A stretch of DNA of 64,000 bases from Parcubacteria group bacterium M6-OD1-1 (GTDB lineage: Bacteria > Patescibacteriota > Minisyncoccia > GWC2-36-17 > M10-OD1-4). Position numbers and translations under genes: made by a program. Each line of letters starts with the position of its first letter. Position 1 is the first letter of the stretch. Location: assembly GCA_003056085.1 (NCBI GenBank), contig LSNK01000001.1, positions 8,481 to 72,480 on the forward strand, written 5' to 3'. The notes below the pieces were generated by a model, which was not told where the DNA came from, did no database searches, and saw only the letters and a program-made list of their open reading frames with translations. Shown here one piece after another: positions 1-44,841 of this stretch.

Positions 1-320
1 ATCAATATAATTTTCTAGATTTTTGCTAATGTTGTTTGGGTCGTCCAAAAGTTTTTCAAAAGTAAAAAATGAAGTATTATAAAAATCATATCCGGATTTT
101 GATTTCAAAATATCCAAGCTCAAACCCTTTCCTGCCAAGTCATTGTACATCCCAATCACATCAGCCTTTGTTGGTTCCAGCACAGTATCAAGTCTTTTCA
201 GTACCAAAAAAGGCAAGATAACATCTTGATATTCATATGACTTCCAGCCTCCGCGAAGCAAATTTGCAATCGCTTTTGAAGTACTTACTATTTTTTTAAA
301 TTCTTGATTGTTCATAATAA
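1..320 (-). CDS. N6-adenine DNA methyltransferase, N-terminal part (type I HsdM-like); 3' portion lies left of the window
   Basis: Minus-strand translation from ATG at 318-320 gives MNNQEFKKIVSTSKAIANLLRGGWKSYEYQDVILPFLVLKRLDTVLEP...; the FLVLKRLD segment and layout resemble the HsdM N-terminal domain. Frame stays open to the window edge. Confidence 0.55.
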
Positions 321-515
321 TTATTTTATTAAATCATCAACACTCATTTCAAGCGCTTTGGATACTTTTTGCAAAGTATCAAGTGTAGGATTTTGATTCG
401 CGCCGTTTTCTATCTTTACAATGGTATTGAGAGACAAATCAGCAAGACGAGCGACCCTTTCGAGAGAGTAGCCTTTTTCGGCACGTATCTTTTTTAAATT
501 ATTCGCTATGCTCAT
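321..515 (-). CDS. XRE-family helix-turn-helix transcriptional regulator (candidate R-M controller protein)
   Basis: 64 aa with a classic HTH_3 pattern (EKGYSLERVARLADLSLNTIVKIENG). It abuts the start of the methylase gene, as C proteins of R-M systems do. Confidence 0.8.
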   Translation of the reverse strand: MSIANNLKKIRAEKGYSLERVARLADLSLNTIVKIENGANQNPTLDTLQKVSKALEMSVDDLIK

Positions 516-640
516 AGTGATATTGTATAATTTAGTATATAGAATATAATATAAAGTATGAAAGCTTTACATCTTAATCATAACGGATTTCTTGAATTTT
601 GCAAAGGTTATGACGAAAGCAAAACCATAAAATTTCACCA

Positions 641-742
641 AAGGCACTGCGTTTTGTTGCTAAATTAAAAATTTAGACAAAACGGGAGGCTAAAGCACTG
701 CATTTTGTTGCTAAATTAAAAATTTAGACAAAACGGGAGCCT
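641..742. repeat. Tandem direct repeat (2 x ~48 nt), each unit a hairpin (GTTTTGT..CTAAATT AAA AATTTAG ACAAAAC) followed by CGGGAG
   Basis: Two near-identical units are visible at 641-690 and 689-742. They sit between the XRE gene start and the GC-rich region. Confidence 0.6.
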
Positions 743-784
743 TCCAATCTTTCGCGGCTCCCTCCTGCGTCCCCCGTTTTTTTA
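733..784 (+). terminator. Terminator/attenuator-like stem (GGGAGCC..GGCTCCC inside AAAACGGG..CCCCCGTTTTTTT)
   Basis: Nested inverted repeats followed by a T-run on the plus strand. Confidence 0.35.
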
Positions 785-794
785 AGGATAAGGA

Positions 795-1100
795 AATTTT
801 GGTTTTGCGCGGAGCGGAGGACGAATGGAGGCAAGCGGAGTGTGTGCGCTTGCGCGCACACGGAGTTTGCCGAAGTAAGGACGGAGCGACCCCCGAGGCA
901 CGGTGGAGTTGGCATTATCACGCGCTCCGAGCGTGAGATTAGGTTCAGAGCTACCACGCCGCGTGGCGCGTGCGAGTTATTAATCGCTCTGCGATTGTTG
1001 TTCAAAAAAGGTTCGAGCAAAGGATACAATCTCAATCAGGTGACTGTGTTACGTGGGGAGTTGGCGGTTGCGACGATGACTAATAACAGTTTACGACATC
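795..1100 (+). ncRNA. Candidate structured RNA of unknown class (GC-rich island in an AT-rich genome; strand uncertain)
   Basis: About 58% GC over ~300 nt, with many local hairpins (GTGTGCGCTTGCGCGCACAC; CGCGCTCCGAGCG; CCACGCCGCGTGG). It ends at a strong intrinsic terminator. The overlapping ORFs (842-1105 +, 724-1035 -) are Arg/Gly-rich and look like GC artefacts. Confidence 0.35.
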
Positions 1101-1105
1101 AATAA

Positions 1106-1139
1106 AAAGCTCTGTTTTATATAATCAGAGCTTTTTTCT
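1106..1139. terminator. Bidirectional rho-independent terminator (AGCTCTG..CAGAGCT + T-run, A-run on the other side)
   Basis: Perfect 7-bp stem flanked by A- and T-runs. It serves the plus-strand GC-rich RNA and the minus-strand gene ending at 1125. Confidence 0.8.
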
Positions 1140-1979
1140 TTTTAAAAATTCTTTCAGTACTGATTCTTGACACACTACATGATTTTTACCAAATACGGAG
1201 AAAATATTCTTTCCCTCTTCAAAAAGCTTAATTTTAGCTAATGCAATATAAGCATCCCTTGCACTATTAAAAGCAGCTCCAATTTCATTAATAATAGTTT
1301 TTTTAATAAAAGGATTTTGAATATCTTCTATTTCTTTTATATTCCATTCTTGATTAAGTAATTCATTCTTATTCCCAAAAACAAATCCATTTCCAAATAT
1401 TTCATTAAGTTTATTTTGAAAATACAATAAATATTCATCAAATGATTTTTTTATACCAATGCTGTCCCCAATATCTTTAATTTGATTAATAATATTATCA
1501 GCATTATTAACTATATTTGTTTTTTGTGATTTTAATGCATATAATAACATATTCAGAAAAATCCATAATAAAATATCCTCTTTTTTAAAATTCCATTTTT
1601 CTATAACAAAATTCATTACTTCATTAGGTGATGGTTCTGGACATATACTTTTCACATCATACTTATTTGAAAGCCATACAAGAAATCCAGATTCTCCGTA
1701 TTTTTTAATCATATTTTTTTTGGACTCAATCTCTGGTTTAAAATTTTCTATTAGAACAACTGTGTATTCTTTACCTTTCTTTATAAAATCCTTAAATAAC
1801 GATTCAATGACCACATAATTATTATGTAGTGGATCTATTGAATGCTCAACTCCAATACACAATATTTCTCCGTCTTCATTATTTAATTTAATAACATATG
1901 GAGTTTCATAATCATCAGAATTATATTCCTGTAAAGATACAATAGAATCGAATATTGGATCATTAATATTTATTTTCAT
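1125..1979 (-). CDS. Hypothetical protein (284 aa)
   Basis: Long AT-rich ORF with a terminator; no motif recognised. Confidence 0.6.
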   Translation of the reverse strand: MKININDPIFDSIVSLQEYNSDDYETPYVIKLNNEDGEILCIGVEHSIDPLHNNYVVIESLFKDFIKKGKEYTVVLIENFKPEIESKKNMIKKYGESGFLVWLSNKYDVKSICPEPSPNEVMNFVIEKWNFKKEDILLWIFLNMLLYALKSQKTNIVNNADNIINQIKDIGDSIGIKKSFDEYLLYFQNKLNEIFGNGFVFGNKNELLNQEWNIKEIEDIQNPFIKKTIINEIGAAFNSARDAYIALAKIKLFEEGKNIFSVFGKNHVVCQESVLKEFLKRKKL

Positions 1980-2235
1980 AATATTGGATAATATAATAAA
2001 ATTATTTATATATTATATCATAAATCACACAATCCCTCCGCATTGTGTCGGAATCTGTCTTTTGACGAATTTTTGTTTCGTAACGCGCCTGCGGCGCGGT
2101 CGCGCTTCGCGCGAAAGGGGCTGATTCTGCAACGATTTGCCACGCTTTGCGTGGCAAAAAAGAAATGTTTTGGTTTTGGATTTGGAAGTTCGAACCAATC
2201 TTTTTTAGAAAATCCCGAAAGGATTCGGGATTTTC

Positions 2236-2640
2236 TTGCAAAGCGATAATTTTAATAATATTTTGACTTTTAGAAATATGGAAAAAGAAAATCAAGCCAA
2301 AAAGTTTTTTATCTACGCTCGCAAGTCAACGGACAACGAGGATAGACAAGTTCGGAGTATTGGCGACCAAATTGCTGAATTGCGGGAATTGGCGGAAAAA
2401 GAAAATTTGGAAGTTGTTGACTTGCTTGTTGAAAAACAAACCGCCAAGAGTCCGGAGCGTCCTGTTTTCGCCGAGATGTTGAATCGGATAGAAGCGGGCG
2501 AAGCGTCGGGAATTTTAGCATGGCACCCCGACAGATTAGCTCGCAATTCCGTTGATGGCGGACAAATTATTTATCTTGTTGATACTGGTGTTATTCGCGA
2601 GCTAAAATTCCCAACTTTTGGTATTATTGTGAAGGTTTTT
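2236..2640 (+). pseudogene. Serine recombinase/resolvase, N-terminal catalytic-domain fragment (truncated)
   Basis: FFIYARKSTDNEDRQVRSIGDQ...GILAWHPDRLARN matches the serine recombinase catalytic motifs (YxRxSt, DRLxRN). Homology stops after ~125 aa, and the frame then runs antisense through the neighbouring hydrolase gene. Confidence 0.7.
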
Positions 2641-3203
2641 GGCTCATCGGCATTATTAAAAATTCTTTTTACATCATCGGGAGTAATAAGTGTATCTTGT
2701 TCACCAGCAAATAAAACAATCGAGGCTGTTATTTTTGCAACATCTTCAACAACATTGTATTGTGTTCTGTCCTCTACATGCGAGAAAGGTACACGAAACT
2801 CTCGTTTTTTATCTCTGTTGCTTGGCAAATCGCGAGTAGATACACTCACGCCAATTTCTTTCCATTCTCTTTCTCTCTTTGGTGTCATTGATTCGTCCGA
2901 TGATGGCATAATGCCAAGCACTTTTGAAATTCGGTTATCACGCGCTGCATACAAAAGCGAAACCATGCCACCACGACTATGTCCGCCAAGCAAAATGTCT
3001 GTATATTCGCTTTGGGTTAGCGTATATTCAAGTACACTTTTTATATCGGAAAGATATTGCGTAATTGTATAATCAGTAATATCGCCATCACTATCCAAAA
3101 CGCCAGTTGGATCAAAGCGCACCGAAGTATATCCATGCTTAGTTAATTCATTTGCTAGTTCCGCCAATCCGACATAGTCTTTTGAGTCCAAAAGCCCGGA
3201 CAA
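2571..3203 (-). CDS. Alpha/beta-fold hydrolase (GHSRGG nucleophile elbow); the N-terminal 32 codons sit in another frame up to the ATG at 3296-3298 (frameshift in a T4 run, plus-strand A-run at 3190-3193)
   Basis: The ORF as given starts at TTG. The upstream frame reads MNITKDFIKGTKGNLSVAIHYPETKTEKLAILCPGF and joins LDSKDYVGLAELANELTKHGY if one T is added; LAILCPGFLDSKD is the typical HGF oxyanion segment. Confidence 0.75.
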   Translation of the reverse strand: MSGLLDSKDYVGLAELANELTKHGYTSVRFDPTGVLDSDGDITDYTITQYLSDIKSVLEYTLTQSEYTDILLGGHSRGGMVSLLYAARDNRISKVLGIMPSSDESMTPKREREWKEIGVSVSTRDLPSNRDKKREFRVPFSHVEDRTQYNVVEDVAKITASIVLFAGEQDTLITPDDVKRIFNNADEPKTFTIIPKVGNFSSRITPVSTR

Positions 3204-3309
3204 AGTATCGCCAGTTTTTCCGTTTTTGTTTCTGGGTAATGTATCGCAACAGAAAGATTGCCTTTTGTTCCTTTTATAAAATCTTTTGTGATGTTCATAT
3301 TGAAATTGT

Positions 3310-3909
3310 TTACTTTGTAATTTGCTCTATCAACTCTGGAAGCTCTTCAACTTGGAAGTGTCCGCTATCCTCAAAAATGTGCTTTTGTGCTCTTAACAAC
3401 TCTTCCGCGTATGCCTCAAAATCTCCGAAGTCAACAACATCGTCATCTTTTGAATGATACAAGTGTATTTCCGAAACTTGCTTTTCTATATTTTCAAGTG
3501 TGCCCGTCAATACAAAACTTGAACGCTTGATACAACTCCTATCGCCAAACGGAGCGGCGAGCAAATGCAACGACTTTATTTTTCTCAGGTATGTATTCTC
3601 TGCAAGATACTTTACAAGAAATACACCACCGAGAGAGATGCCAACAAGAACAACATCATCGTCAATATACTGCGTATATTTCTCAAACCAAATCTTCCAC
3701 TCGTTATATTTTGCATTCCAAGCACACGGCATTTGCGGTTTTATAAGTTGGTAATTTTCACCGAGATCTTCTTCAAGAGATTGACTCCATTTTTTAGGTG
3801 GCTCGTCATTCGGGTCACTTGGTTCAGTAGACTTAAGAAAATCCAAATATGCCTCGTTATTTTCCCAAGACTCACCACCGTGTATTAAAATTACTTGTTG
3901 TTTTTTCAT
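3310..3909 (-). CDS. Alpha/beta hydrolase, YdeN/RBBP9-like serine hydrolase family
   Basis: VILIHGG...W...VLVGISLGG pattern. Confidence 0.75.
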   Translation of the reverse strand: MKKQQVILIHGGESWENNEAYLDFLKSTEPSDPNDEPPKKWSQSLEEDLGENYQLIKPQMPCAWNAKYNEWKIWFEKYTQYIDDDVVLVGISLGGVFLVKYLAENTYLRKIKSLHLLAAPFGDRSCIKRSSFVLTGTLENIEKQVSEIHLYHSKDDDVVDFGDFEAYAEELLRAQKHIFEDSGHFQVEELPELIEQITK

Positions 3910-3913
3910 ATTT

Positions 3914-4123
3914 TTATTTCGTTAAATCTCCAACACTAACTCCAAGCGCACTCGCAACCTTTTCCATTGTGCTAATTGTAAGATTTTGTTTACCATTCTC
4001 AACATTACTGATATATGCTCTATCTAAATCTAACGCTCGGCAAATGTCGCCTTGCGACATTCCTTTTTCTAAGCGTATCTTTTTCATATTGTCTCCAAAT
4101 TTTTTTGCTGTATTTTGACTCAT
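3914..4123 (-). CDS. XRE-family HTH transcriptional regulator
   Basis: MKKIRLEKGMSQGDICRALDLDRAYISNVENGKQN is an HTH_3 motif. Confidence 0.85.
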   Translation of the reverse strand: MSQNTAKKFGDNMKKIRLEKGMSQGDICRALDLDRAYISNVENGKQNLTISTMEKVASALGVSVGDLTK

Positions 4124-4198
4124 GTTTTATCTAAAAGTTATCAACTTTGGTATTTTAACATACCATTATGTTATCACTCAATAGTAAGTTTCAATGTG

Positions 4199-4288
4199 CG
4201 GAGGGAACAGGATTTGAACCTGCGGTAGGCGTAAACCTACACATCCTTTCCAAGGATGCGCCTTAAACCACTCAGCCATCCCTCCAAA
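4199..4288 (-). tRNA. tRNA-Ser (anticodon GGA), long variable arm
   Basis: Reverse complement GGAGGGATGGCTGAGTGGTTTAAGGCGCATCCTTGGAAAGGATG...GGTTCAAATCCTGTTCCCTCCG folds as a class II tRNA with a 7-bp acceptor stem. Confidence 0.9.
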
Positions 4289-4331
4289 TTTGAAATTAAT
4301 TTTTATTTCGTCCTTGGAGAAAATCTTACTA

Positions 4332-4946
4332 TCATACGGACTTATATGTCAACATCTGCACAAACGCAAAAGCAACGGCGATGTAAAGAATATATTGAGC
4401 GGTTACAAGAAGCATTGAAATTGGAAATATCATATAAATAAACAAAATGCTAACACCTACAGATTGAAAAATCATTTTTACTTTTCCGAATTTTTCTGAC
4501 TGAACCGTAACACCTTGATATCTTTTTTTGTAATAAGCTCCTAAAACTATAATCAACTCTATAAGTATTATAGCAAACGCCAACCAAATGCTTAAAAACT
4601 TTGGTATTAAAACAACTGCCGTTGTTCCTATTAAAAGCTTATCTGCCAATGGATCAAAAAGTTTACCCCAATTTGTCACTTTATTTTGCGTCCTTGCCAA
4701 AGCCCCGTCCAACGCATCTGAAAATGCAGATACAATAAACAAAATAACGCCCAAAATATATTCCTCTCCGACTAAAAGCAGTAAAACAAAAGGAATAGAT
4801 AAAAAACGAAATATAGTAAGATGATTTGGAGTAACCCAAGACGGCAAAAATCTCAAAAAGACAAAAGCTAAAAATTTATCTGACTTTGTAACCTTTTTGG
4901 CTTTTTGATATGTGTAGTCTTCTCCTGTTGTGTTTTCTAAAAACAT
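4332..4946 (-). CDS. pgsA: CDP-alcohol phosphatidyltransferase (phosphatidylglycerophosphate synthase-like)
   Basis: DALDGALAR...G...DPLADK motif; multiple TM segments. Confidence 0.8.
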   Translation of the reverse strand: MFLENTTGEDYTYQKAKKVTKSDKFLAFVFLRFLPSWVTPNHLTIFRFLSIPFVLLLLVGEEYILGVILFIVSAFSDALDGALARTQNKVTNWGKLFDPLADKLLIGTTAVVLIPKFLSIWLAFAIILIELIIVLGAYYKKRYQGVTVQSEKFGKVKMIFQSVGVSILFIYMIFPISMLLVTAQYILYIAVAFAFVQMLTYKSV

Positions 4947-4996
4947 GTTTTGTTAGATTATAAATTATAGGTGTTAGGTTATAGGAAATATTATTT

Positions 4997-5908
4997 CTAT
5001 CTATCCATATCTTGTAAAGCCTTGATGCGTTCTTCCATAGGAGGGTGCGTCATAAAAAGCTTTCCCAACTTTGCTTTAAACCCCTTTTCGCGAAATGGAT
5101 TTGAAATATACATATGCGCTGTTGCGTGACTTGCTTTTTTCATCTCTCCCGGATAACTTGAGATTTTTTTAAGCGCGCTTGCAAGTCCGTCCGGATAACG
5201 CGTCATTAAAGCCCCTGACGCATCTGCTAAAAATTCTCTTTTTCTTGATATTGCAAGGTGAATCAAACTTGCGGCAATCGGCGCAAGTATAGCCATAACA
5301 ATACCCGCAACAAGAAGTATTAACTGAAGTTTTCCGTCTCCTCCGTTGTTGTTTCTTCTGCCTCCTCCAAACCAAAATGTATAACGCAAAAACATATCGG
5401 ATAAAATAGCGATAAACCCAACCAAAACGACAGAAATTGTTGAAACTAATATGTCTCTGTTTTTAACATGAGAAAGCTCATGAGCCAAAACTCCTTCAAG
5501 CTCTGACTTTTCAAGCCTTTCTAACAACCCTGAGGTCACGGCAACAGCCGCGTGTTCTGGGTCGCGTCCGGTTGCAAACGCATTTGGCGCAGGGTCGTTT
5601 ATCACATAAAGTTTTGGCATCGGAAGACCTGTTGCTATCGTTAAATTTTCAACAAGATTATACAATTCTCTGTGTGTTTTTGCATCAACTTGTTTTGCTC
5701 CTGACATTTTTATAACTATTTTGTCGGAGTTCCAATAAGAAAAAATATTCATAGCCAATGCAAAAACCACTGCAATATATAAAATAGAGGGGTTTCCCAA
5801 AATCTGCGCAAAAACCCAACCAACTAAAATAACAAAAACGAAAAACAGACTCATAATGAGCCAAGTTTTTCTCATATTCAATGATTCATAGTTATATGCT
5901 GTTGCCAT
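4997..5908 (-). CDS. htpX: Zinc metalloprotease HtpX (M48)
   Basis: HELSHVKNRD HEXXH motif; TM helices; full-length similarity. Confidence 0.9.
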   Translation of the reverse strand: MATAYNYESLNMRKTWLIMSLFFVFVILVGWVFAQILGNPSILYIAVVFALAMNIFSYWNSDKIVIKMSGAKQVDAKTHRELYNLVENLTIATGLPMPKLYVINDPAPNAFATGRDPEHAAVAVTSGLLERLEKSELEGVLAHELSHVKNRDILVSTISVVLVGFIAILSDMFLRYTFWFGGGRRNNNGGDGKLQLILLVAGIVMAILAPIAASLIHLAISRKREFLADASGALMTRYPDGLASALKKISSYPGEMKKASHATAHMYISNPFREKGFKAKLGKLFMTHPPMEERIKALQDMDR

Positions 5909-5943
5909 TTTGTTAGATTATAGGTGTTAGGTTATATGAAATT

Positions 5944-6204
5944 TTAATGCTTACTGTTCTTGTAATACAAAGACAGAAACAAAACAAGCCAAGAACCGAC
6001 TACACCAACAACAAAACTTATAACGATAGGAAAATTGCCGGTCAAAACACCGTAAACGGTCCAAGTTGCCGTGCCCGCAGAAAATATAATATAAGAAATT
6101 ATAGAAATATTTTCTGATGATTTAAGTTTATAAATTTTATAAGCTTGCGGATAATAAGCAAAGGACATCGCGACTCCCATGATAGTTGTTAGTAGTTCCA
6201 GCAT
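5944..6204 (-). CDS. SemiSWEET/PQ-loop sugar transporter (86 aa, 3 TM)
   Basis: YYPQAYKIYK PQ-loop motif; size and topology match bacterial SemiSWEET. Confidence 0.75.
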   Translation of the reverse strand: MLELLTTIMGVAMSFAYYPQAYKIYKLKSSENISIISYIIFSAGTATWTVYGVLTGNFPIVISFVVGVVGSWLVLFLSLYYKNSKH

Positions 6205-6318
6205 TGTTTATTTTTTGTTATTACGATTAACCGCTTCTTGGAGTTTTAGCAAGCATACCAACTTCAGACAGAAAGTTAGCTATATTTTTTCTATCATCTT
6301 CCATAATGAAAAGGTATT

Positions 6319-6945
6319 TTAGAAATTAACTTTAACCGGCTCTTTGGCAGCCTCTTCTTCCAGTTCAAAAAACTCTTCTTCTTTAAAGTTAAATATTCCC
6401 GCTATTAAGTTTTGAGGAAACATCTGCACGGCATTGTTCATCTCTTTTACATTTGAGTTGTAAAATCTTCTTGATGCTTGTATTTTATTTTCCGTATCTG
6501 TTAACTCCCTCTGAAGCTCCAAGAAATTCTCATTTGCCTTCAAGTCAGGATAATTCTCAGAAACTGCAAATAAACTTTTTAAAGCTCCTGTAAGCATATT
6601 TTCCGCTTCTTGTTTTTCTCCTACATTTTGTGCACCCATCGCCTTTGTTCTTGCTTCTGTAACAGCTTCCAAAACTCCTTTTTCGTGTGCAACATACCCT
6701 TTTACAGACTCTATTAAGTTCGGGATTAAGTCGTACCTTCTTTTTAACTGAACATCTATGTCAGACCACGCATCTCTTACATTGTTTTTTAGCCTAACGA
6801 ACGCATTATACATCGCAACGAGCCATAAAACGATTACAACTGCAATAGCAATGCCATTTATTTTCCAATCAATAATATCAAAAAGACCGCTTACAACAAG
6901 CGCCACAACGATTAATCCAAAAATAAAATTCCAAAAATTATTCAT
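6319..6945 (-). CDS. lemA: LemA family protein
   Basis: N-terminal TM helix, then YNAFVRLKNNVRDAWSDIDVQLKRRYDLIPNL..., the hallmark LemA pattern. Confidence 0.85.
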   Translation of the reverse strand: MNNFWNFIFGLIVVALVVSGLFDIIDWKINGIAIAVVIVLWLVAMYNAFVRLKNNVRDAWSDIDVQLKRRYDLIPNLIESVKGYVAHEKGVLEAVTEARTKAMGAQNVGEKQEAENMLTGALKSLFAVSENYPDLKANENFLELQRELTDTENKIQASRRFYNSNVKEMNNAVQMFPQNLIAGIFNFKEEEFFELEEEAAKEPVKVNF

Positions 6946-7089
6946 AAATTTTAATAAAAAAAATAATTAATTACTTTAATACATAATATCAAAACATCTG
7001 TAAAATATCAAACCAAAAACTATATTATAAATTAAAAAAATACTGTATTATATAATTAATTAGTACATTGCCAATTAGGAGAATATCTA

Positions 7090-7404
7090 ATGTCTATTGC
7101 ATACAGTAATTTTTATGTTTATTTTAAAAAACAATTTGGTGAAAAAAATATAATTATTATGCTGAAAAAATTTATAAGATATTTTTTCAAATATAATAAT
7201 CCGGAATTAATAATGTTTAGCGCCATTAAAGACAAGGAAGATTTAGGATATGAAATCATTATAACAACGAGACAAGTGCCTTCTTTAAAAATACGCAAAA
7301 CTTTTATGAGATTTTGCAGAGAAAATGGTTATCTCAAAAAGGATAAGATAATTAAAATTTCAAAAATCAAACACAAAGTAATAACAAAGAAAAGTCTTCT
7401 TTGA
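7090..7404 (+). CDS. Hypothetical Lys-rich small protein
   Basis: AGGAG RBS 8 nt upstream of the ATG; followed by a terminator hairpin. Confidence 0.5.
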   Translation: MSIAYSNFYVYFKKQFGEKNIIIMLKKFIRYFFKYNNPELIMFSAIKDKEDLGYEIIITTRQVPSLKIRKTFMRFCRENGYLKKDKIIKISKIKHKVITKKSLL

Positions 7405-7407
7405 AAA

Positions 7408-7446
7408 TTCCCCAATTATTATTATAATTAGGGGATTTTATTTTCC
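7408..7446. terminator. Bidirectional terminator (CCCCAATTATTATTATAATTAGGGG)
   Basis: Near-perfect palindrome between convergent genes. Confidence 0.6.
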
Positions 7447-7767
7447 CTTGCTCTTAAATATTATCACATTTAAATGATAAATTTTATTTTTTTCTATTTT
7501 AAGCTTTATCTCCATAAGCGAAGACCCTTCCGGGGCAGGCAATGTTTCCGCATTTCCGGTTTCCGGATTAAACAAAGCATAGTGAGTTACACACTTTAAC
7601 TTGCAATTTTCCATAGTTAGAGAACCCCCCGCATGAGTACAATAGTCAATAAAGGCATGAAAGTTGCCTTTTGTGTTTACTAAAATAGCGTCTCTGCCTT
7701 TGTATTTAAATTTTTTCAGCTCACCATCTTTTATATCTGATGTTTTTGCAATAAAAAACTGATTCAT
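7438..7767 (-). CDS. Rieske [2Fe-2S] domain protein
   Basis: CTH...(16)...CVTH is the Rieske ligand pattern. Confidence 0.8.
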   Translation of the reverse strand: MNQFFIAKTSDIKDGELKKFKYKGRDAILVNTKGNFHAFIDYCTHAGGSLTMENCKLKCVTHYALFNPETGNAETLPAPEGSSLMEIKLKIEKNKIYHLNVIIFKSKGK

Positions 7768-7819
7768 TTTTTTAGAATTTAGAGAATATAGAAGTTAGAA
7801 TTGTTAAGTAAAGTTTTAA

Positions 7820-7990
7820 GGTTTCTAAAATTGAGGTCATGTCTCCGCTAAGACTATGGCAAGCAGTATAAAATTTGTTTGAGTTGAGTGCGATTTGAGG
7901 AAGAAATAAGAAGTGAAACAAGCTGTACTAAAGGTACAGCGAGTAAGCTTCGCAACTTCTGACGAAAAAGCGTGCCAATTCAAATAAATT
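7820..7990 (+). repeat. Dispersed structured repeat, copy A (core 7897-7986)
   Basis: Shares ...GAGG.AAA..AAGTGAAA..[hairpin GCTGTAC-TAAAG-GTACAGC]..GAGTAAGC...GACGAAAAAGCGTGCCAATT with copies B-F. It abuts the stop codon of the ferredoxin gene. Confidence 0.7.
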
Positions 7991-8257
7991 TTATGGGAAG
8001 ATTATGTTTCCGTCTTCATCTTCTAATATAATAGCTTTAGTCGGGCAAGATTGCGCCGCAAGCAAAATAGTTTCATCGTCCAAATTTGTTTGGAGTTCTT
8101 TTTTTTCTGTTTCTTCAGATCTTTTCTTCCCGTTTTTTAATAAGATAACCGCTTTATTCTCATCGTCAAGCTCAAAAACTTCAGGAGCCACGACAACACA
8201 AGATGCCGCCCCTATACACAAATCTCTGTCCACTATAATTTTTTTTATTTTTTTCAT
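7991..8257 (-). CDS. Ferredoxin (single [4Fe-4S] cluster type)
   Basis: CIGAASC...AAQSCP resembles archaeal/Thermotoga-type mono-cluster ferredoxins. Confidence 0.7.
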   Translation of the reverse strand: MKKIKKIIVDRDLCIGAASCVVVAPEVFELDDENKAVILLKNGKKRSEETEKKELQTNLDDETILLAAQSCPTKAIILEDEDGNIIFP

Positions 8258-8317
8258 ATTATTTTTTAATTCTTAAGATATTAAACCTCAAACTCTTCTC
8301 CGTTTTTTAAAGCAATC

Positions 8318-9181
8318 TTATTCCTCCGGGACACCCTCTCCTTTTCCAATTTTTCTAAAACTTCCCTTACCAAAAGTATCTTCTATTAATCTGCCAATTG
8401 CCAACATTCTTCCATTTACCTTAGCATTAATGAATAGTTTTACAATATCCTCCCTATTTGAAAACTTATCTTTATTCAATTCCCAAAGTTTATTTATGAG
8501 AGAATTTATTTTATCTATTTCATCTCCTTTATAAAATTTCAGAGAACTTCTTTCTCCGTTGCTTACTTGCTCTATTTCATCTTTAAAAATCTCATTTTTC
8601 AAAACAATATTATGATAATATTGTTTTGTCATAAGTTCAGTTATGGCTTCATCAAAATCTTCAAAAAACTCCTCTTTGCCATCTCTGGACACTACTTTAA
8701 ATCCACTGCGATATTCACTTTCTGCATGATCATCTCCTTTAATTTTTTGTAAAACAACAATAGATTTTGCATGGATAAACTCATGAAACAATATTAAAGA
8801 AAATTCTATGTCAGACTTTAACCTATCAACTAAAATACCGCCTCTAACTGCAGAATGAGCTCCTGTAGAAAGCCTGCCTTCAGTGTACTCATTAGTGCCC
8901 CCATTTTTTAAAATATGGATATTTTCAATTGGAACTTCAAATACATTATCTTTTTTTAAACTTGATATGTATTCAGAAGCTTCCTTTTGAGTAAAATTTA
9001 TCACCTCTAAATCTCTTTCTGTTTTTTCTAATTCAAGGTCTTTGATATTTTCTTCATTTGCATCCTTATTAAGTAATGTTTCAGAAAACATAGATAAAGA
9101 AGCATCAAAAGCTTCTTTATCTTTTCTTTGTTCTTGTGGAATACCCACTACATTATCTATATGAGAATTAAATTTTTCCAT
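8318..9181 (-). CDS. Hypothetical protein with an HEXXH motif (SLILFHEFIHAKS)
   Basis: 287-aa ORF; possible metallopeptidase-like fold, but only the short motif is seen. Confidence 0.5.
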   Translation of the reverse strand: MEKFNSHIDNVVGIPQEQRKDKEAFDASLSMFSETLLNKDANEENIKDLELEKTERDLEVINFTQKEASEYISSLKKDNVFEVPIENIHILKNGGTNEYTEGRLSTGAHSAVRGGILVDRLKSDIEFSLILFHEFIHAKSIVVLQKIKGDDHAESEYRSGFKVVSRDGKEEFFEDFDEAITELMTKQYYHNIVLKNEIFKDEIEQVSNGERSSLKFYKGDEIDKINSLINKLWELNKDKFSNREDIVKLFINAKVNGRMLAIGRLIEDTFGKGSFRKIGKGEGVPEE

Positions 9182-9248
9182 ATATTAAAGAATACTTAAA
9201 ATTTAGCATTTTGTAAAACCAATTTAAAATTAAAATATAAAATTTTAA

Positions 9249-9420
9249 GATTTCTAAAATTGAGCACAGGTCGCAGCCTCCCGTTTTTATCCAAGAGCGC
9301 AGCGATTGGTTTTAAAACGCAGTGCTATCAGTATAAAAAGGAAGAGTGATGCTGAGCTGTATTTATAGATACAGTGAAGTTGAGCGATGAGTTTTTAGCA
9401 AGAGATGTGCCAATTTTGAA
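9249..9420 (+). repeat. Dispersed structured repeat, copy B
   Basis: GCTGTAT-TTATAG-ATACAG hairpin; ...TTTTTAGCAAGAGATGTGCCAATT 3' part. It shares TTTCTAAAATTGAG and CAGGTCGCAGC 5' segments with copies A and C. It abuts the nifU stop. Confidence 0.7.
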
Positions 9421-9424
9421 AATC

Positions 9425-10120
9425 TTATCCGAAATACTTTTCTTTATAAAAACGAAGCAGCTGTTCCGCCTCCGGAATACAAACAGGGTCACCAGTTCCC
9501 ACTTTTGTTTTTTTTTGAAGTTTTTCAAAAGTATCTGCTCCTTCAAGCACCGCTTCTTCAATATCTTTATCTGTTACATTTAAAACTTTATCTATAACTT
9601 TTTTGCCTTCCACTTTTATTCTGTCGTTTTGTCCTGTTCTTCTAAAAAAATCATTAATGGCGCTTTGAAGCGCTTTGTCTCCTAAAACAGAGCAGTGAAT
9701 TTTCCTGTTTGGAAGACCTCCTAATCTTTCCATTATGTCTTGTGGTTTTATCTTCAAAGCATCCTCCACTTTCATGCCTCCATTTTCCAAAAGCATAACA
9801 GAAAGCATAGATGTTGAAGCAATAGCGGACGCGCATCCGAAGGTCTGCCATTTTGCATCTTTTATTTTCTCTGTTTTTTCATCCACCAAAAGCCAGATTT
9901 TCATCATATCTCCGCACGCAGGAGAACCAACCATACCCAAAGCGTTGTATTTAAACTTTCCTTCCATGTCGGTCGTCAAAAAATTCCTCGGATTAAAAAA
10001 ATGATCTTTTACATTTTCCGTGTAAACCCATTTTTCTTTTTTATCATAAGAAACAACATCGGATTCACTTCTTTTATTTTTTTTATTTTCGTTTTTCATA
10101 AAATATATTCTAAATTTCAA
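9425..10120 (-). CDS. nifU: Fe-S cluster assembly scaffold, NifU/IscU family
   Basis: GSPACGD and FGCASAIAS IscU motifs; adjacent to the cysteine desulfurase gene. Confidence 0.8.
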   Translation of the reverse strand: MKFRIYFMKNENKKNKRSESDVVSYDKKEKWVYTENVKDHFFNPRNFLTTDMEGKFKYNALGMVGSPACGDMMKIWLLVDEKTEKIKDAKWQTFGCASAIASTSMLSVMLLENGGMKVEDALKIKPQDIMERLGGLPNRKIHCSVLGDKALQSAINDFFRRTGQNDRIKVEGKKVIDKVLNVTDKDIEEAVLEGADTFEKLQKKTKVGTGDPVCIPEAEQLLRFYKEKYFG

Positions 10121-10123
10121 ATT

Positions 10124-11335
10124 TTAAAGCTTCAACTTACTCATGTCTATTTTTGTCGGTGATATTTTTCTTAAATTTTCAACCACCCCCGGAAGTTTTT
10201 CCAAAACATAATCAATATCTTCTTCTGTTGTGTATCTTCCAAGAGCAAACCTCAAACTTCCATGAGCCGCCTCATACGGCAAACCAATCGCTAAAATAAC
10301 ATGCGAAGGGTCAAGGCTGTGTGAAGTGCAGGCAGAACCCGTTGAAGTATAAATTCCGTATTGATCCAAGTGAAGTATCAAAGCTTCACCTTCAATATCC
10401 AAAATCGTAATATTTATATTATTCGGCAAACGTTTCTCCGGATGTCCGTTTAAAAAAGTTTTTGGAATAGTTTTTAAAATTTCTTCTTTTAATTTCTTGC
10501 CTAATTTCAAAAGCCTTTCTGTTTCTTCTTCTTTTTTTTCATCTGCTAATTTAAGAGCTTTTGTGAGCCCCACGATTCCTGCTATATTTTCCGTTCCCGA
10601 TCTTAAATTTTTCTCCTGACCGCCACCATAAACCAATGGTTCTATTTTAACTCCTGTTTTTAAATATAAAATACCAATACCCTTCGGACCGTATATTTTA
10701 CTTCCATTTAAAGTAAGCATGTCCACCCCAAGGTCATTTATATTCAAGTTCAAATAACCCGCAGCCTGACATGCATCTGTATGAAAGTAAGGAAATTGTG
10801 TTTTGTTTTCTTTTTTGAAGTTTTTAATAACTTCAGCAATTTCAGAAATAGGCTCAATAGTTCCTATTTCATTATTGGCATACATTATAGAAACCAAAAC
10901 TGTATCTTTCCGTAATGCATTTTTTACATCTTTTGGATTCACCAAGCCATATTTATCCACCGGAAGATATGTGACTTCAAATCCTTCTTTTTCCAGCTTC
11001 TCGCAAGGATGAAGCACCGCATGATGTTCAATTTTGGAAGTTATAATATGATTCTTCTTTTCTTTATTTTTTCTTGCAGATCCTAAAATAGCCAAGTTGT
11101 CCGACTCCGTGCCTCCTGAGGTAAACAAAATCTCATCCGGACGAACACCTCCCAAAATTTTGGCTATTTCTTCCCTCGCTTCGTCAATAACCATTTTAGA
11201 TTCATGTCCAAGCTTATACATACTTGAGGGATTGCCGTAATGTTCAGAAAAATACGGCAACATAGCCTCCAAAACTTTGGGGTCTGTTTTTGTTGTTGCT
11301 GCATTGTCTAAATATACTTCCTTTGTTGTTTTCAT
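10124..11335 (-). CDS. nifS: Cysteine desulfurase (NifS/IscS)
   Basis: PLP-dependent class V aminotransferase features; full length ~400 aa. Confidence 0.9.
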   Translation of the reverse strand: MKTTKEVYLDNAATTKTDPKVLEAMLPYFSEHYGNPSSMYKLGHESKMVIDEAREEIAKILGGVRPDEILFTSGGTESDNLAILGSARKNKEKKNHIITSKIEHHAVLHPCEKLEKEGFEVTYLPVDKYGLVNPKDVKNALRKDTVLVSIMYANNEIGTIEPISEIAEVIKNFKKENKTQFPYFHTDACQAAGYLNLNINDLGVDMLTLNGSKIYGPKGIGILYLKTGVKIEPLVYGGGQEKNLRSGTENIAGIVGLTKALKLADEKKEEETERLLKLGKKLKEEILKTIPKTFLNGHPEKRLPNNINITILDIEGEALILHLDQYGIYTSTGSACTSHSLDPSHVILAIGLPYEAAHGSLRFALGRYTTEEDIDYVLEKLPGVVENLRKISPTKIDMSKLKL

Positions 11336-11561
11336 TTAATATTACTGCTAATTTTAATCTTTAATTTAATACTAATAAGAATTAAATAATAAGATAAAGA
11401 AACAAGACACGATAACCAAGCAACAAGCAAATTTCAAGAAACAATAATCAAAACGAGCCGTGTTTGTAATTTGTTGTTTGATTATCGCAGCTTGTTTGTT
11501 ACTTGTTTTTTTGTATCTTGGTTATTTCTTAAAAATTCTTTATTTTTAACTCTTAATTTTT

Positions 11562-11957
11562 TTATAAAATATCTTTTAAACTTATATTGCTCAATGTATC
11601 ATCTACACTTTTTTTCAACTTGCTCCATACTACTCTCGTTTTACATCCTTTTTCTTTCCCGCACTTGTGTCCGGAAAGGCATTTTACCGGAGCGGTATCT
11701 CCTTCAAAAATATTAATTATGTTTAAAATATTAATCTCTTCCGGGGATTTCAAAAGCATATAACCTCCGTTTCTTCCCGCCTTTGACTTTATGATTTTCT
11801 GTTTTTTTAAAAGCGCGGCTATTTCTTCAAGATACCCGTAAGATATATTTTCTTTTTTTGATACTTCCGCAAGAGAAACGACTCTTCCTTTACAAGATGC
11901 AATATACGCCAAAAGACTTAGCGCATATTCACTCCTTGTTGAAACTTTAAAAAACAT
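11562..11957 (-). CDS. iscR: Rrf2-family transcriptional regulator (IscR-like)
   Basis: TRSEYALSLLAYIA HTH; C-terminal Cys cluster; sits upstream of nifS-nifU. Confidence 0.85.
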   Translation of the reverse strand: MFFKVSTRSEYALSLLAYIASCKGRVVSLAEVSKKENISYGYLEEIAALLKKQKIIKSKAGRNGGYMLLKSPEEINILNIINIFEGDTAPVKCLSGHKCGKEKGCKTRVVWSKLKKSVDDTLSNISLKDIL

Positions 11958-12121
11958 AGATTAAATCTAATTCCAAGTTAATAGCTGTGAGTTTAATATA
12001 TAATTTTTAAAAAGTCAACTACCATTCTTAAATTAGGCTGAATATCCATAACTTGATTCTTTTAAAAAAATAATGCACAATACTTCCAGTATTTATTCAT
12101 GCAACCTTGGAGGTTAGCAGT

Positions 12122-12232
12122 GTGAAAAAAATTAAAAATAGAGCAAAGATTAAAAACGCGGCCAAAAGAAATCATCTCAACAAGCGCAGGGAAAAAATAA
12201 TCCTGAAACTCCAAAGACAACAACTCCAATAA
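12122..12232 (+). CDS. Small basic protein (36 aa, GTG start), weak resemblance to the N-terminus of ribosomal protein S20
   Basis: GGAGG sits 9 nt upstream of the GTG. VKKIKNRAKIKNAAKRNHLNKRREKIILKLQRQQLQ; a strong terminator follows immediately. Confidence 0.3.
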   Translation: MKKIKNRAKIKNAAKRNHLNKRREKIILKLQRQQLQ

Positions 12233-12249
12233 GTAAAATAAAGTCTACC

Positions 12250-12287
12250 GCCCCTCTTGTCTAAAACAGACAAGAGGATTTTTTTTG
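12250..12287 (+). terminator. Rho-independent terminator (CCTCTTGTCT AAAA CAGACAAGAGG + T8)
   Basis: Perfect 10-bp stem plus a T-run just upstream of cysS. Confidence 0.75.
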
Positions 12288-12320
12288 GATTTTTTTTGCG
12301 GTTTCTGCTAAAATAAGCTC

Positions 12321-13718
12321 ATGTTTATATATGACACTCTATCAAAAAAGAAAAAAGTATTCAGACCTCGTGATAAAAAACAAGTGACTATGTTTGTGTG
12401 CGGAATAACCCCGTATGACTCTCCTCATATAGGAAATATACGTGCTTTTTTAAATTATGACATTATAGCAAACTATCTTAGACACAAAGGCTATAAACTT
12501 AAATACATTCAAAATATAACCGACATAGACGACAAAATAATAGCAAGATCACAAGAAAAGAAACTTGACTGGGAAAAACTCGGCAATCAATACTTTGAAG
12601 AATTAAAAAATATTTTAAAAACTTTAAATATAAAAAGCGTTGATAAATACATAAAAGCAACTGACCATATCCCGCACATAATAAAACAAATAAAAACCCT
12701 CATAAAAAAAGGCTATGCTTACGAAAATAACGGCACTGTATTTTTTGATGTCAGAAAATTTAAAGATTACGGGAAACTCTCGGGACAAAATTTAAAAAAG
12801 CTCAAAAAAGCGGAACGAACAGAGAAAGACACAAATAAAAAACATCCTTACGATTTTGCTCTATGGAAAGCAAAAAAACTTTCAGAGCCTTCCTGGGACT
12901 CGCCTTTCGGACCGGGAAGACCCGGCTGGCACATAGAAGATACGGCCATAACGGAACATTACTTTGGACAGCAATATGACATACACGGAGGAGGAAGAGA
13001 CTTAATATTTCCCCACCATGAATGCGAAATAGCTCAGCAAGAATCAGCCTCCGGTAAAAAACCATTTGTAAAATACTGGATGCATTCCGGATTTGTTAAT
13101 GTAAATGGAGAAAAAATGTCTAAATCTCTTGGAAATTTTATAACTGTAAAAGAACTTTTGGAAAAAACTGAGCCGGACATTATAAGATTTATGATGCTTT
13201 CTGTGCATTACAGATCCCCCATTGACTACACAAGCAAGCTGCTTGAACAATCAAAAAGTTCTCTTGAAAAGATAACTGATTTTTCAGACAGGTTAAAAAA
13301 ATTCAAACCTAAAATCAATCCAAAAAAATCAATTTCATGCAAGTGTAAAACAATAAATGCTCAGATTAAAAAGTTTTTCTCAGAAATGGACGATGACTTC
13401 AATACGCCAAAAGCTTTGGCGGCGCTTTTTAGTTTAATTAATTTATCAAATTCAAAAATGGATAAAAACACCTTATCTGAAACAGACAAAGAAAATATAA
13501 TTTCATTTTTAAAAGACGTTGAAAATATTTTCGGAATAAAAATATTAACAAAAAAAAGAGAGAAAATCTCAGAAGACATAACCGACCTTTTGGAAGCCCG
13601 CAAAAAAGCCAGAAAAGAAAAAAATTGGAATGAGTCAGATAAAATAAGAGAGATGCTGAAAAAAAGAGGCTACTTGGTCAAAGACACCCCGCAAGGACAA
13701 AAACTCAAAAAAGTATAA
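12321..13718 (+). CDS. cysS: Cysteine--tRNA ligase
   Basis: HIGN and KMSKS motifs; 465 aa. Confidence 0.95.
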   Translation: MFIYDTLSKKKKVFRPRDKKQVTMFVCGITPYDSPHIGNIRAFLNYDIIANYLRHKGYKLKYIQNITDIDDKIIARSQEKKLDWEKLGNQYFEELKNILKTLNIKSVDKYIKATDHIPHIIKQIKTLIKKGYAYENNGTVFFDVRKFKDYGKLSGQNLKKLKKAERTEKDTNKKHPYDFALWKAKKLSEPSWDSPFGPGRPGWHIEDTAITEHYFGQQYDIHGGGRDLIFPHHECEIAQQESASGKKPFVKYWMHSGFVNVNGEKMSKSLGNFITVKELLEKTEPDIIRFMMLSVHYRSPIDYTSKLLEQSKSSLEKITDFSDRLKKFKPKINPKKSISCKCKTINAQIKKFFSEMDDDFNTPKALAALFSLINLSNSKMDKNTLSETDKENIISFLKDVENIFGIKILTKKREKISEDITDLLEARKKARKEKNWNESDKIREMLKKRGYLVKDTPQGQKLKKV

Positions 13719-13853
13719 AATAATGAACAGTTTATAAACACCTTATAAAAAAACCTTTTAAATTGGAGGGTTTTTTTGTTTAAATTACTCATTTTTGACT
13801 TCAGTTATTTTTCAAGCTATCATAGGTTTACTAAAGAATAAACTAATTTAATT

Positions 13854-15254: not shown

Positions 15255-15858
15255 ATCCATACAAAATTTAATAGAAAGCCTTTCAAAGCTCCCTTCCATA
15301 GGACCAAGGCAAGCATCCAGAATTGTATTTTATCTTCTTAAGAAACCTGATGACGAGATAAAATCTTTTTCTGAAAATCTATTATCACTCAAACAAAATG
15401 TGAAGCTTTGTCCTGAATGTTTTTTAAGCTATGAAGCTGACGGAGTAAAAAAAGGCTGTGATATATGCTTGAGCCATAAAAGGCTAAAAACAAAAATTTG
15501 CGTACTTCAAAAAGAGGTGGAAATAAACAACATTGAAAATACCGGAATATTTGACGGCGTTTATCATATTATTGGAGAAGATATAAATATGCTAAATGAT
15601 GAAAAACAAACCGAAACAAGCATAAAAAAATTAATAGAAAGAATAAAAAATCTTAAAAACCAAAATCAAAATGACATTGAAGTCATATTGGCGACAAATC
15701 CAACCACAGAAGGAACGGCAATGCTGATGTATTTAAATCAAAAACTAAAACCTCTTGATATTAAAATTACCGTTTTAGGCAGAGGCTTGTCATCCGGCAA
15801 TGAACTGGAATACGCCGACCAAGAAACAATAAACAATGCATTTTTAGGCAGAAACTGA
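15244..15858 (+). CDS. recR: Recombination protein RecR
   Basis: MYSKSIQNLIESLSKLPSIGPRQASRI; C4 zinc finger CPEC...CDIC; Toprim. The start overlaps the dnaB stop. Confidence 0.9.
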   Translation: MYSKSIQNLIESLSKLPSIGPRQASRIVFYLLKKPDDEIKSFSENLLSLKQNVKLCPECFLSYEADGVKKGCDICLSHKRLKTKICVLQKEVEINNIENTGIFDGVYHIIGEDINMLNDEKQTETSIKKLIERIKNLKNQNQNDIEVILATNPTTEGTAMLMYLNQKLKPLDIKITVLGRGLSSGNELEYADQETINNAFLGRN

Positions 15859-15915
15859 CAACAAAAAACCCGCTTAAACAGCGAGTTTTTTGTTGAGTTT
15901 TATTTGAGTAAGTTT

Positions 15916-16224
15916 TTATTTAATATCAGTAATTTTTACTTCAGTATGAGGCTGTCTATGCCCTCTTTTAACTCTCACTCTTTTTTTAGGTTTATACCTT
16001 AAAGATATCTTTTTTTTGTCTCTTCCTTGAGTTAATATCTCTCCGGAAACCTTAGAGCCTTCAATGTAAGGCTGACCTATTTTGGTATCTTTGTCGGAAG
16101 AAATAAGCAAAACTTTATCAAAGACAATTTTAGAACCTTCCTCACCTTTTAGTTTTTCCACTTTTATCTTGTCTCCAACAGATACTTTATATTGTTTTCC
16201 TCCTGTTTCTATTACGCTAAACAT
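15916..16224 (-). CDS. rplU: 50S ribosomal protein L21
   Basis: MFSVIETGGKQYKVSVGDKIKVEKL. Confidence 0.9.
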   Translation of the reverse strand: MFSVIETGGKQYKVSVGDKIKVEKLKGEEGSKIVFDKVLLISSDKDTKIGQPYIEGSKVSGEILTQGRDKKKISLRYKPKKRVRVKRGHRQPHTEVKITDIK

Positions 16225-44668: not shown

Positions 44669-44737
44669 ACGGTCTGAACCCAGCTCGCGTACCGCTTTAA
44701 TTGGCGAACAGCCAAACCCTTGGAAGCTTCTCCACCT

Positions 44738-44768
<31 letters not shown>

Positions 44769-44804: not shown

Positions 44805-44841
<37 letters not shown>

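Follow-up and report, generated by a model that had tools for sequence, protein, structure and literature searches.

A probable serine-recombinase defence island bordering tRNA-Ser(GGA) in a Patescibacteria genome

Results

Gene content of the block next to tRNA-Ser(GGA)

Positions 1 to 4197 of the 64,000-nt stretch of DNA from Parcubacteria group bacterium M6-OD1-1 that we analysed (hereafter the window) hold the start of a restriction-modification (R-M) operon, a fragment of a large serine recombinase (LSR), two hydrolase genes, two XRE-type regulators and a GC-rich repeat, and they end at a tRNA-Ser(GGA) gene. This block is probably the tRNA-proximal end of a composite accessory defence island of the LSR type, inserted at the tRNA-Ser(GGA) 3′ terminus in a member of the Patescibacteria (Candidate Phyla Radiation, CPR). 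The features, located by open reading frame (ORF) listing, Pfam, ARAGORN and Rfam, are as follows.

1..315, minus strand: HsdM, codons 1-105 (Pfam HsdM_N, 2.5e-15); the rest of the gene lies beyond the window's left edge
321..515, minus strand: XRE1, 64 aa (Pfam HTH_3, 1.2e-14), at the head of the R-M operon
619..808, plus strand: M2, an AT-rich hairpin module with arms at 619-636 and 791-808
809..1033, plus strand: M3, the core of the GC-rich repeat (copy c1), ending in ...AAAAAGGTTCGAGCAAAGGATACAATCTC
1034..2028, minus strand: probable single-gene insert, with a 70-nt GC piece, a terminator hairpin, the 284-aa gene and its upstream region
1125..1979, minus strand: ORF of 284 aa, GC content ~22%
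2029..2042, plus strand: junction motif ACAATCCC overlapping TCCCTCCGCA
2043..2262, minus strand: inverted remnant of the LSR C-terminal tail, containing hairpins at 2139-2155 and 2211-2232
2278..2619, plus strand: LSR catalytic N-terminal domain, codons 1-114 (Pfam Resolvase, PF00239, 5.3e-17)
2571..3298, minus strand: hyd1, an alpha/beta hydrolase pseudogene (Pfam Hydrolase_4, 3.4e-14)
3310..3909, minus strand: hyd2, Ser_hydrolase family, ORF intact (Pfam PF06821, 8.5e-9)
3914..4123, minus strand: XRE2, 69 aa, with Protein Data Bank (PDB) matches to controller (C) proteins, at the head of the hydrolase operon
4165..4197, minus strand: XRE2 promoter arm directly after the tRNA, with -35 TTGAAA, dyad ACTTA-CTAT-TGAGT and -10 CATAAT (promoter scan 10/12)
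4198..4285, minus strand: tRNA-Ser(GGA) (ARAGORN and Rfam, 56.5 bits), which marks the island's insertion point and its right-hand limit

Every feature listed in the initial annotation is present in the sequence, with small corrections to the coordinates. The tRNA lies at 4198-4285 on the minus strand rather than at 4199-4288, and the serine-recombinase fragment, which had been started at 2236, shows homology from the ATG at 2278 to 2619, 2236 being a mere upstream TTG. The recombinase is truncated, as had been noted: only its catalytic domain, codons 1-114, is there.

The block is accessory and begins at the tRNA 3′ end

To the right of the tRNA lies a CDP-alcohol phosphatidyltransferase gene with orthologues 87-88% identical on three contigs from relatives (L017, L018 and L019). 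All three run collinear with window 16053..4189, and their nucleotide homology goes no further than the tRNA-Ser 3′ end. Past the tRNA, L017 carries unrelated small genes and then RNHCP-DnaG-RpoD. A tblastn search with the island proteins found none of them on the three contigs except a 42% identical paralogue of hyd2 at another position. The block is accessory, as the initial annotation had proposed; it is absent from all three relatives, with the break at the tRNA. In L019, moreover, a 30-nt direct repeat of the tRNA-Ser(GGA) 3′ end stands 40 nt downstream of the tRNA (10848-10960), a classical integration (att) scar in which hardly any sequence remains between the repeats. Because synteny stops at this point and L019 bears the scar, the tRNA-Ser 3′ end is an integration hot spot in the lineage.

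An overlapping contig carries a full-length restriction system

Within the window, the type I R-M system is represented solely by HsdM codons 1-105. An exact-protein look-up with XRE1 retrieved a 9.1-kb contig, L004, which equals window 681..1 at 100% and continues leftward in the order XRE1-HsdM(686)-DUF3800(269)-HsdS(443)-Fic/SoFic(365)-HsdR(980 aa), so that both HsdS and HsdR are found full length by extension beyond the edge. PADLOC matched HsdM residues 1-686 to positions 1-659 of 661 in the MTase_I profile, HsdS residues 10-443 to positions 7-439 of 448 in Specificity_I, and SoFic end to end; HsdR has a partial REase_I match (residues 118-738) together with Pfam HSDR_N, ResIII and T1R_D3. 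Judged by these reading frames, HsdM, HsdS and HsdR are all complete on the overlapping contig and the type I system is full length. The earlier description of the element as decayed holds for the recombinase, which is not intact, but not for the R-M system and SoFic.

A second contig, L013, is identical to L004 1603-9106 and extends further left. After HsdR it carries another copy of the GC-rich repeat (c2), a 90% identical copy of the window's XRE2 region, and then a second unit consisting of the XRE2 copy, an aldehyde dehydrogenase (ALDH) gene and a gene for a 223-aa protein with weak PADLOC PDC-S47 matches, followed by repeat copy c3. The XRE2 copy (7555-7764) is 87% identical to that of the window and has an in-frame TGA (ICRALD becomes IC-stop-ALD); unless the stop is read through, it is a pseudogene.

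The initial annotation also proposed looking at the far boundary for a direct repeat of the tRNA-Ser 3′ end. A 33-nt repeat, made of the last 9 nt of the tRNA and 24 nt of flank with 1 mismatch, does lie 12.6 kb leftward (L004 9074-9106). It continues, however, as a 307-nt, 90% identical copy of window 4206..3901 (L013 7472-7778), XRE2 included, with another unit beyond. L004 and L007, short-read contigs from different samples, both end at window position 4174, the result expected of a branch in the de Bruijn graph when the post-tRNA sequence occurs in two contexts.

The recombinase fragment and its relatives

The LSR fragment carries the catalytic motif YARKST with Ser17, and R15-K16-S17-T18 is invariant in 14/14 sequences. 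It is 70-90% identical to its best 120 database relatives, all of them pieces of 100-203 aa. Homology ends after LKFPTF, where relatives run on into ...WFDPTPQGKFMLSIAFGQSKYY.DNLSENIKRG... and then into Recombinase and zinc-ribbon domains. Both domains are present in the homologues on L014, L015 and L021, and L022 has the Recombinase domain alone. In the window, L004 and L013, tblastn found neither Recombinase (PF07508) nor zinc ribbon (PF13408), and the only LSR parts there are codons 1-114 and the inverted tail described below. The window LSR is a fragment and not a functional member of the family. We examined six LSR loci in other contigs.

L014: a 248-aa gene inserted in the LSR; the LSR ends at tRNA-Ser(TGA)
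L016: an HNH gene in place of the LSR middle; ends at tRNA-Ser(TGA)
L021: LSR with a frameshift; ends at tRNA-Ser(TGA)
L022: LSR with frameshifts; ends at tRNA-Ser(GGA)
L015: LSR with a frameshift; ends at tRNA-Gln
L020: the contig stops before the LSR end

The tRNA is convergent with the LSR and beside its end in five contigs, and in 4/5 it is a tRNA-Ser. In L014 and L016, the LSR ORF reads via a conserved tail (...KIIASKENP....FLKKIGSNF.LQNQ....PR.AWQI.AKS) straight into the antisense strand of tRNA-Ser. The homologous loci have their LSR at the tRNA; near the att site of the window, the evidence for an integrase consists of codons 1-114 and the inverted tail fragments. The frameshifts in L015, L021 and L022 may be long-read errors. 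As separate observations, in the LSR region of L014 (8001-10800) the 248-aa gene, of no known function, sits after LSR codon ~139, and in that of L016 (8001-9460) the HNH endonuclease gene takes the place of the LSR middle while the N-terminus and the tail are retained.

The hairpin cluster is an inverted copy of the recombinase 3′ end

Just upstream of the LSR fragment, the initial annotation had pointed to GC-rich hairpins as a possible former crossover site: GCCACGC-TTT-GCGTGGC at 2139-2155 and AATCCCGAA-AGG-ATTCGGGATT at 2211-2232. They are more than chance, because the whole of 2083-2255 is 78-86% conserved in two other contigs. By tblastn, residues 264-317 of the L014 LSR match window 2253..2083 (56% identity, E 5e-13). 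The minus-strand translation of the cluster, ...IIALQENPESFRDFLKKIGSNFQIQNQ..PRKAWQIVAES, aligns with the LSR ends in L014, L016, L015 and L022, and the encoded tail is ...KIIALQENPESFRDFLKKIGSNFQIQNQNISFLPRKAWQIVAES. These alignments identify the hairpin cluster as the 3′ coding end of the LSR, present here in inverted form.

L014, L016 and L015 likewise have the tail in inverted orientation upstream of where the LSR starts. Tail copies are 92-96% identical within one locus and 78-87% between loci, a pattern that suggests homogenisation of the two copies or their use as a pair. Codon-position counts among close copies show no third-position excess, so at present these copies are not under protein-level selection. 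The coding origin of the tail is indicated by its deep protein matches to L015 and L022, whose more distant LSRs share it at the protein level.

The tail copy is bordered on its outer side by TCCCTCCGCA (2033-2042), which consists of the last 8 nt of tRNA-Ser plus CA. This 10-mer occurs at just two sites in the 64 kb, 2033(+) and 4197(-), in mutually inverted orientation, and a like junction follows every GC-rich repeat copy and each tRNA-Ser in the related loci. The hairpins are thus no bare crossover site: in this region only the edge motif matches the tRNA terminus, and the hairpins themselves belong to a remnant of the recombinase gene. As a minor alternative for the present layout, segment 2043-4196 may have been inverted between the two oppositely oriented 10-mers. 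Turning it back would restore both canonical junctions, but this leaves the fusion of LSR and hydrolase unexplained, and the junctions as they stand are already of canonical types.

Two XRE regulators as probable operon leaders

The initial annotation saw in XRE1, which ends 5 nt upstream of the hsdM start, the arrangement typical of C proteins. The position fits, but the sequence is closer to other regulators: the best PDB matches of XRE1 are SinR (1.4e-7) and DdrOC, with C.BclI at just 2e-4. It is XRE2 that is C-like, with matches to the C.Esp1396I family (2.5e-11 to 1e-10), C.BclI (2.9e-10) and C.AhdI (2.5e-8). The XRE2 promoter begins 3 nt after the tRNA, and its dyad ACTTA-CTAT-TGAGT (4175-4188) falls between the predicted -35 and -10; no comparable dyad was identified at XRE1. 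Given the C-protein matches and the promoter dyad, the controller-protein idea fits XRE2 better than XRE1, yet XRE2 heads hydrolases.

An identical XRE1 with a 93%-identical leader precedes RadC and a methyltransferase-like gene in L005. More generally, every cargo operon of this island family (12 operons, from 8 contigs) has an XRE gene at its head, for R-M and other cargo alike. These genes look like generic cassette leaders.

A GC-rich repeat at operon boundaries

The region at ~740-1035, with 50-65% GC in a window of 34% GC, had been described as a GC-rich RNA. The GC-rich block is real, but it is one copy of a repeat, without an Rfam match or covariation in its core. Rfam searches returned only tRNAs and rRNAs in window 1-8000 (E<=1), in L004 (E<=5) and in the whole window (gathering threshold). 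The core as a structured RNA received no support from RNAalifold: nine M3 copies gave 13 pairs in two local hairpins, with a covariation term of +0.58 and one compensatory pair.

A full copy consists of M1 (~230 nt), a promoter-like AT spacer, the M2 hairpin with its C-rich loop and T-run, and the M3 core. Pattern scans and nhmmer located one full core in the window, two copies in L004/L013, two each in L008 and L010, where they stand head to head, and further copies in L009, L011, L012, L016 and L020. The nhmmer match to M3 in the window spans 892-1035 (E 2e-37), and copy c1 shares 87% identity with L008 4249-4545 and 75% with copy c2 of L004/L013. The M3 3′ end is nearly invariant, AAAAAGGTTCGCGCAAAGGTTACAATCTC followed by (T/A)CCGC(A/C)A (in pattern form, AAAGGTTCGNGCAAAGGNTACAATCTC). 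In this end, ...ACAATCTC(T/A)CCGC(A/C)A, the last 8-9 nt are common with the tRNA-Ser terminus. We also considered whether the repeat end is a pseudo-tRNA beyond that core and rejected the idea: Smith-Waterman alignments of six ends to tRNA-Ser scored no better than shuffles, copy c2 being the sole exception, in which the aligned part consists of the core and the XRE2 flank.

The M2 loop of the window copy holds a C-rich motif, a T7 run and a tandem repeat of 2 x 51 nt (641-742). The units of this tandem repeat are 94% identical, each with the imperfect palindrome TTGTTGCTAAATT-AAAAA-TTTAGACAA, and are absent from all other copies of the element; they may be a putative XRE1 operator. The M2 arms show compensatory changes (CCAAAA/TTTTGG versus CCGAAA/TTTCGG at window 61964-62058). 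In copy c3 (L013 10130-10240), the M2 loop is inverted and G-rich in the sense of the element, for which reason M2 appears to act like a small palindromic insert of either orientation. A second M2-like long hairpin with a C-rich loop (ACAAAACCGAAAATTTCCTT...AAGGAAATTTTCGGTTTTGT), followed by ~110 nt of GC-rich sequence, lies within window 61960-62216. After these comes a 49-nt 3′ fragment of tRNA-Trp(CCA) at 62168-62216(-), with a T-arm unlike that of the resident tRNA-Trp at 62641-62712; the whole is probably another integration scar of a related element.

The repeat closes a type II R-M operon in L008, a reverse transcriptase operon in L010, the gene of a 1615-aa protein in L012, HsdR and the ALDH-223-aa unit in L013, and an XRE-Ham1-HIT-Ser_hydrolase operon in L020; nhmmer placed the M3 core at each of these operon ends (twice in L013). 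In inverted orientation it precedes XRE-led operons and adjoins the inverted LSR tail in the window, L016 and L010. L016 7632-7797 and L008 4591-4756 are 96% identical while the neighbouring genes are unrelated, which suggests recent horizontal spread of the repeat. A search of viral contigs with two conserved repeat patterns found nothing. Taken together, we read the GC-rich repeat as DNA of the element, which could act as a recombinase arm, an insulator or a terminator, rather than as a stand-alone RNA gene.

Hydrolases, the 284-aa gene and other observations

The hyd1 reading frame is broken near 3200 by a frameshift that leaves two ORFs in different frames, 3155-3298 (a 47-aa N-terminus) and 2571-3203. 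At the 3′ side the gene is truncated at ~2617, short of the expected catalytic His, and the final 14 codons of the frame are read from the antisense strand of the LSR. It is thus a pseudogene. The hyd2 protein is 37% identical to the Ser_hydrolase that closes the XRE-led operon beside the LSR in L020 and 42% to the L017 paralogue. The latter (L017 8316-8921) is flanked by LemA and HtpX, a place taken in the window by a PQ-loop gene (5944-6204); this difference is a small core-region change unrelated to the island.

The 284-aa gene lies between ACAATCTC (1026-1033) and ACAATCCC (2029-2036), a junction that is contiguous in L016, and the 1034-2028 segment includes a bidirectional terminator hairpin (1104-1136). 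Because it is far more AT-rich than its surroundings, the gene looks like a later insertion at the junction. A confident structure prediction gives the protein a TraB/ChaN/erythromycin-esterase-like fold with invariant H46, E78, E96 and H267. It has 7 relatives in 5.8 billion clusters, and the genomic context of the nearest homologue was uninformative.

Outside the island, the large-subunit rRNA match at 43867-48404 spans 4.5 kb against a 2.9-kb model, indicating ~1.6 kb of insertions in the 23S gene.

Discussion

Comparison with known elements

Tycheposons have specific tRNA targets, newer elements push older ones inward, and integrase fragments and tRNA-end motifs are left scattered; elements of this type carry defence or adaptation cargo, and a minority use a large serine recombinase (Hackl et al., bioRxiv 10.1101/2020.12.28.424599). 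The island resembles them in its tRNA-gene target, stacked integrations, broken integrases, repeated tRNA-end motifs and defence cargo. It differs in that the recombinase is always an LSR with its 3′ end at the tRNA, the repeated motif is 8-9 nt rather than a partial tRNA, XRE-led units are closed by a long GC-rich repeat, the host belongs to the CPR, and no replication module was seen.

With phiC31, Bxb1, SCCmec Ccr and TnpX, the recombinase shares a resolvase domain with the YxRxST serine motif, one specific chromosomal site and, in the homologues of the window LSR, the Recombinase and zinc-ribbon domains. Characterised LSRs mostly have protein-coding or intergenic targets and att sites of ~50 bp. 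Here, in contrast, the target is a tRNA 3′ end, the ORF of related LSRs crosses the junction and reads on into the tRNA, the last 25-70 codons of the gene recur in inverted form upstream of its start, and the window copy lacks everything past codon 114.

Integrons, including sedentary chromosomal ones with defence cassettes, offer a further parallel: promoter-proximal cargo units, mostly for defence, form an array with a recurring structured repeat between them and a recombinase at the edge. Unlike integrons, this system has no IntI and no attC with R′/R″ boxes, its units bring their own regulator and promoter, its repeat measures 300-600 bp, and cassette circles were not observed; no tyrosine recombinase was found in the island part of the window or the left extension. 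As in the C.Esp1396I, C.AhdI and C.BclI systems, a small XRE-type helix-turn-helix gene stands directly upstream of its would-be target genes and in the same orientation. C proteins typically accompany type II and not type I R-M systems; here the C-like XRE2 heads hydrolases, and the hsdM-adjacent XRE1 is not specifically C-like.

Proposed history and the evidence against it

The architecture recurs in other contigs. We consider it likely that the family shares one design, in which the LSR ends beside a convergent tRNA and brings mostly anti-phage, XRE-led cargo operons, many of them closed by the GC-rich repeat. For the window, an LSR element carrying XRE-led cargo would have entered at tRNA-Ser, and further units would have joined through LSR recombination at the short core by the tRNA, the newest lying nearest to it. 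In this way the XRE2-hydrolase unit would have been placed between the tRNA and the LSR. A deletion may then have joined the hyd1 3′ end to LSR codon 114, with loss of the rest of the LSR and of the tRNA-side tail, and loss of the LSR would have frozen the island. The 284-aa gene would have entered at the junction next to the inverted copy of the tail, and the cargo is presumably still expressed under its XRE regulators.

Several points weigh against this history. The shared core is only 8-9 nt, and the 3′ end of the repeat is not significantly tRNA-like beyond it. The far repeat is the 307-nt duplication that includes the XRE2 gene, with no clean att core, and the span of the island, at least 15.6 kb, is a lower bound, its far boundary lying beyond the available contigs. 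No intact LSR of the clade occurs among the loci examined, where all are broken, and recombinase activity on the proposed sites is a candidate function only. To our knowledge, an upstream inverted tail copy has no established role in LSR elements. Finally, the window is linked to L004 and L013, contigs from other samples, by one identical overlap of 681 nt, and window 682-890 and 2187-4173, including the LSR/hydrolase fusion at ~2619, has no independent contig match.

Alternative readings

The strongest competitor is a cassette platform run by the LSR, similar to an integron or to recombinase-mediated cassette exchange, in which the repeat is an attC-like site, XRE operons are exchangeable cassettes that often have inverted repeat copies on both sides, and the LSR is resident at the tRNA instead of arriving with each new element. 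The locus would then be a CPR serine-recombinase analogue of the integron at tRNA-Ser, with the inverted LSR 3′ end as an invertible switch or second exchange site. The layout offers much in its favour: the XRE1-R-M module is flanked by inverted c1 and c2 with their conserved ends outward, head-to-head repeat pairs separate cargo operons in L008 and L010, and L014 has a ~70-nt boundary module with a tail remnant at three operon boundaries. Moreover, the 284-aa gene sits exactly at the junction between ACAATCTC and ACAATCCC, the same leaders occur with different cargo, and tRNA end and repeat end are found in all four combinations with the LSR tail arm and the XRE2 arm. Yet inverted sites lead to inversion, not excision, and neither circular cassettes nor empty sites were seen. 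An inverted repeat copy is missing from L020 and from the XRE2 unit, L014 lacks any M3 core, and tandem accretion followed by decay, as in tycheposons, covers most junctions without a new mechanism. We therefore regard both the platform and the integron analogy as possible but unlikely.

The interpretation in the initial annotation was a decayed element with XRE1 as the classical controller of the R-M system and the hairpins as the former crossover site. The truncated recombinase, the pseudogenised hydrolase and the position beside a tRNA agree with it, as do the 5-nt spacing of XRE1 from hsdM and the tRNA-like 10-mer at the edge of the hairpin region. As a whole it nonetheless seems rather improbable, given that R-M and SoFic are intact, that XRE1 is nearer to SinR/DdrOC and also precedes the RadC-methyltransferase pair elsewhere, and that the hairpins lie inside the remnant of the LSR coding end.

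Doubtful, too, is a structured noncoding RNA in 619-1105, and perhaps in the hairpin region, acting as a recombinase regulator or recombination guide. What invites this idea is the elevated GC against an AT-rich genome, together with z-scores for folding of -2.6 (+) and -4.7 (-); full copies have the promoter-like spacer TTGCAA-17-TTACAA before M2, compensatory changes occur in the M2 arms and also in two palindromes of the hairpin region, and the element lies directly upstream of the LSR in L016 and, before the 284-aa insertion, in the window. However, the LSR gene is GC-rich as well, so GC may reflect the base composition of the element itself, and the hairpin region shows homology to protein-coding sequence. 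Individual copies are built from modules and vary by indels, with the M2 loop inverted in c3, while Rfam (E<=1-5) gave no family and the RNAalifold covariation term was +0.58.

An assembly artefact, with the window contig chimeric and joined via repeats, would account for the breaks of short-read contigs from other samples at 681, 891, 2186 and 4174, all repeat or branch points, and for the unsupported 682-890 and 2187-4173, but is very unlikely, since independent contigs reproduce 1-681, 891-2186 and 4174-7521 at 99.6-100%, the 220-kb contig L016 shows R-M, XRE, the GC repeat, the inverted tail, the LSR fragment and tRNA-Ser in the same order, and at 2619 two homologous coding ends are fused cleanly and in register.

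Implications for defence islands in the CPR

We favour the accreted LSR island over these alternatives, and regard its architecture as a variant of tRNA-targeting integrative islands that is new in this form; our literature search found no description of it in the CPR. For annotation, the "hairpin cluster" and the "GC-rich RNA" belong to the mobile element and are not independent RNA genes, and the recombinase is dead while the R-M and SoFic cargo genes are intact and probably functional. CPR bacteria, or Patescibacteria, have tiny genomes and are thought to rely on R-M more than on CRISPR for defence. As far as we know, how R-M systems are acquired and exchanged in the CPR is poorly described. 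This locus and some ten related contigs show a recurring LSR at tRNA-Ser, XRE-led operons and a GC-rich boundary repeat that is nearly identical across unrelated genomes. Should the short tRNA-like core prove to be where the recombinase acts, the enzyme would be a compact serine integrase directed to tRNA genes and would explain how defence islands form in the CPR; the LSR N-terminus, the XRE leader and the repeat end would then serve as markers in searches of CPR metagenomes for new defence genes.

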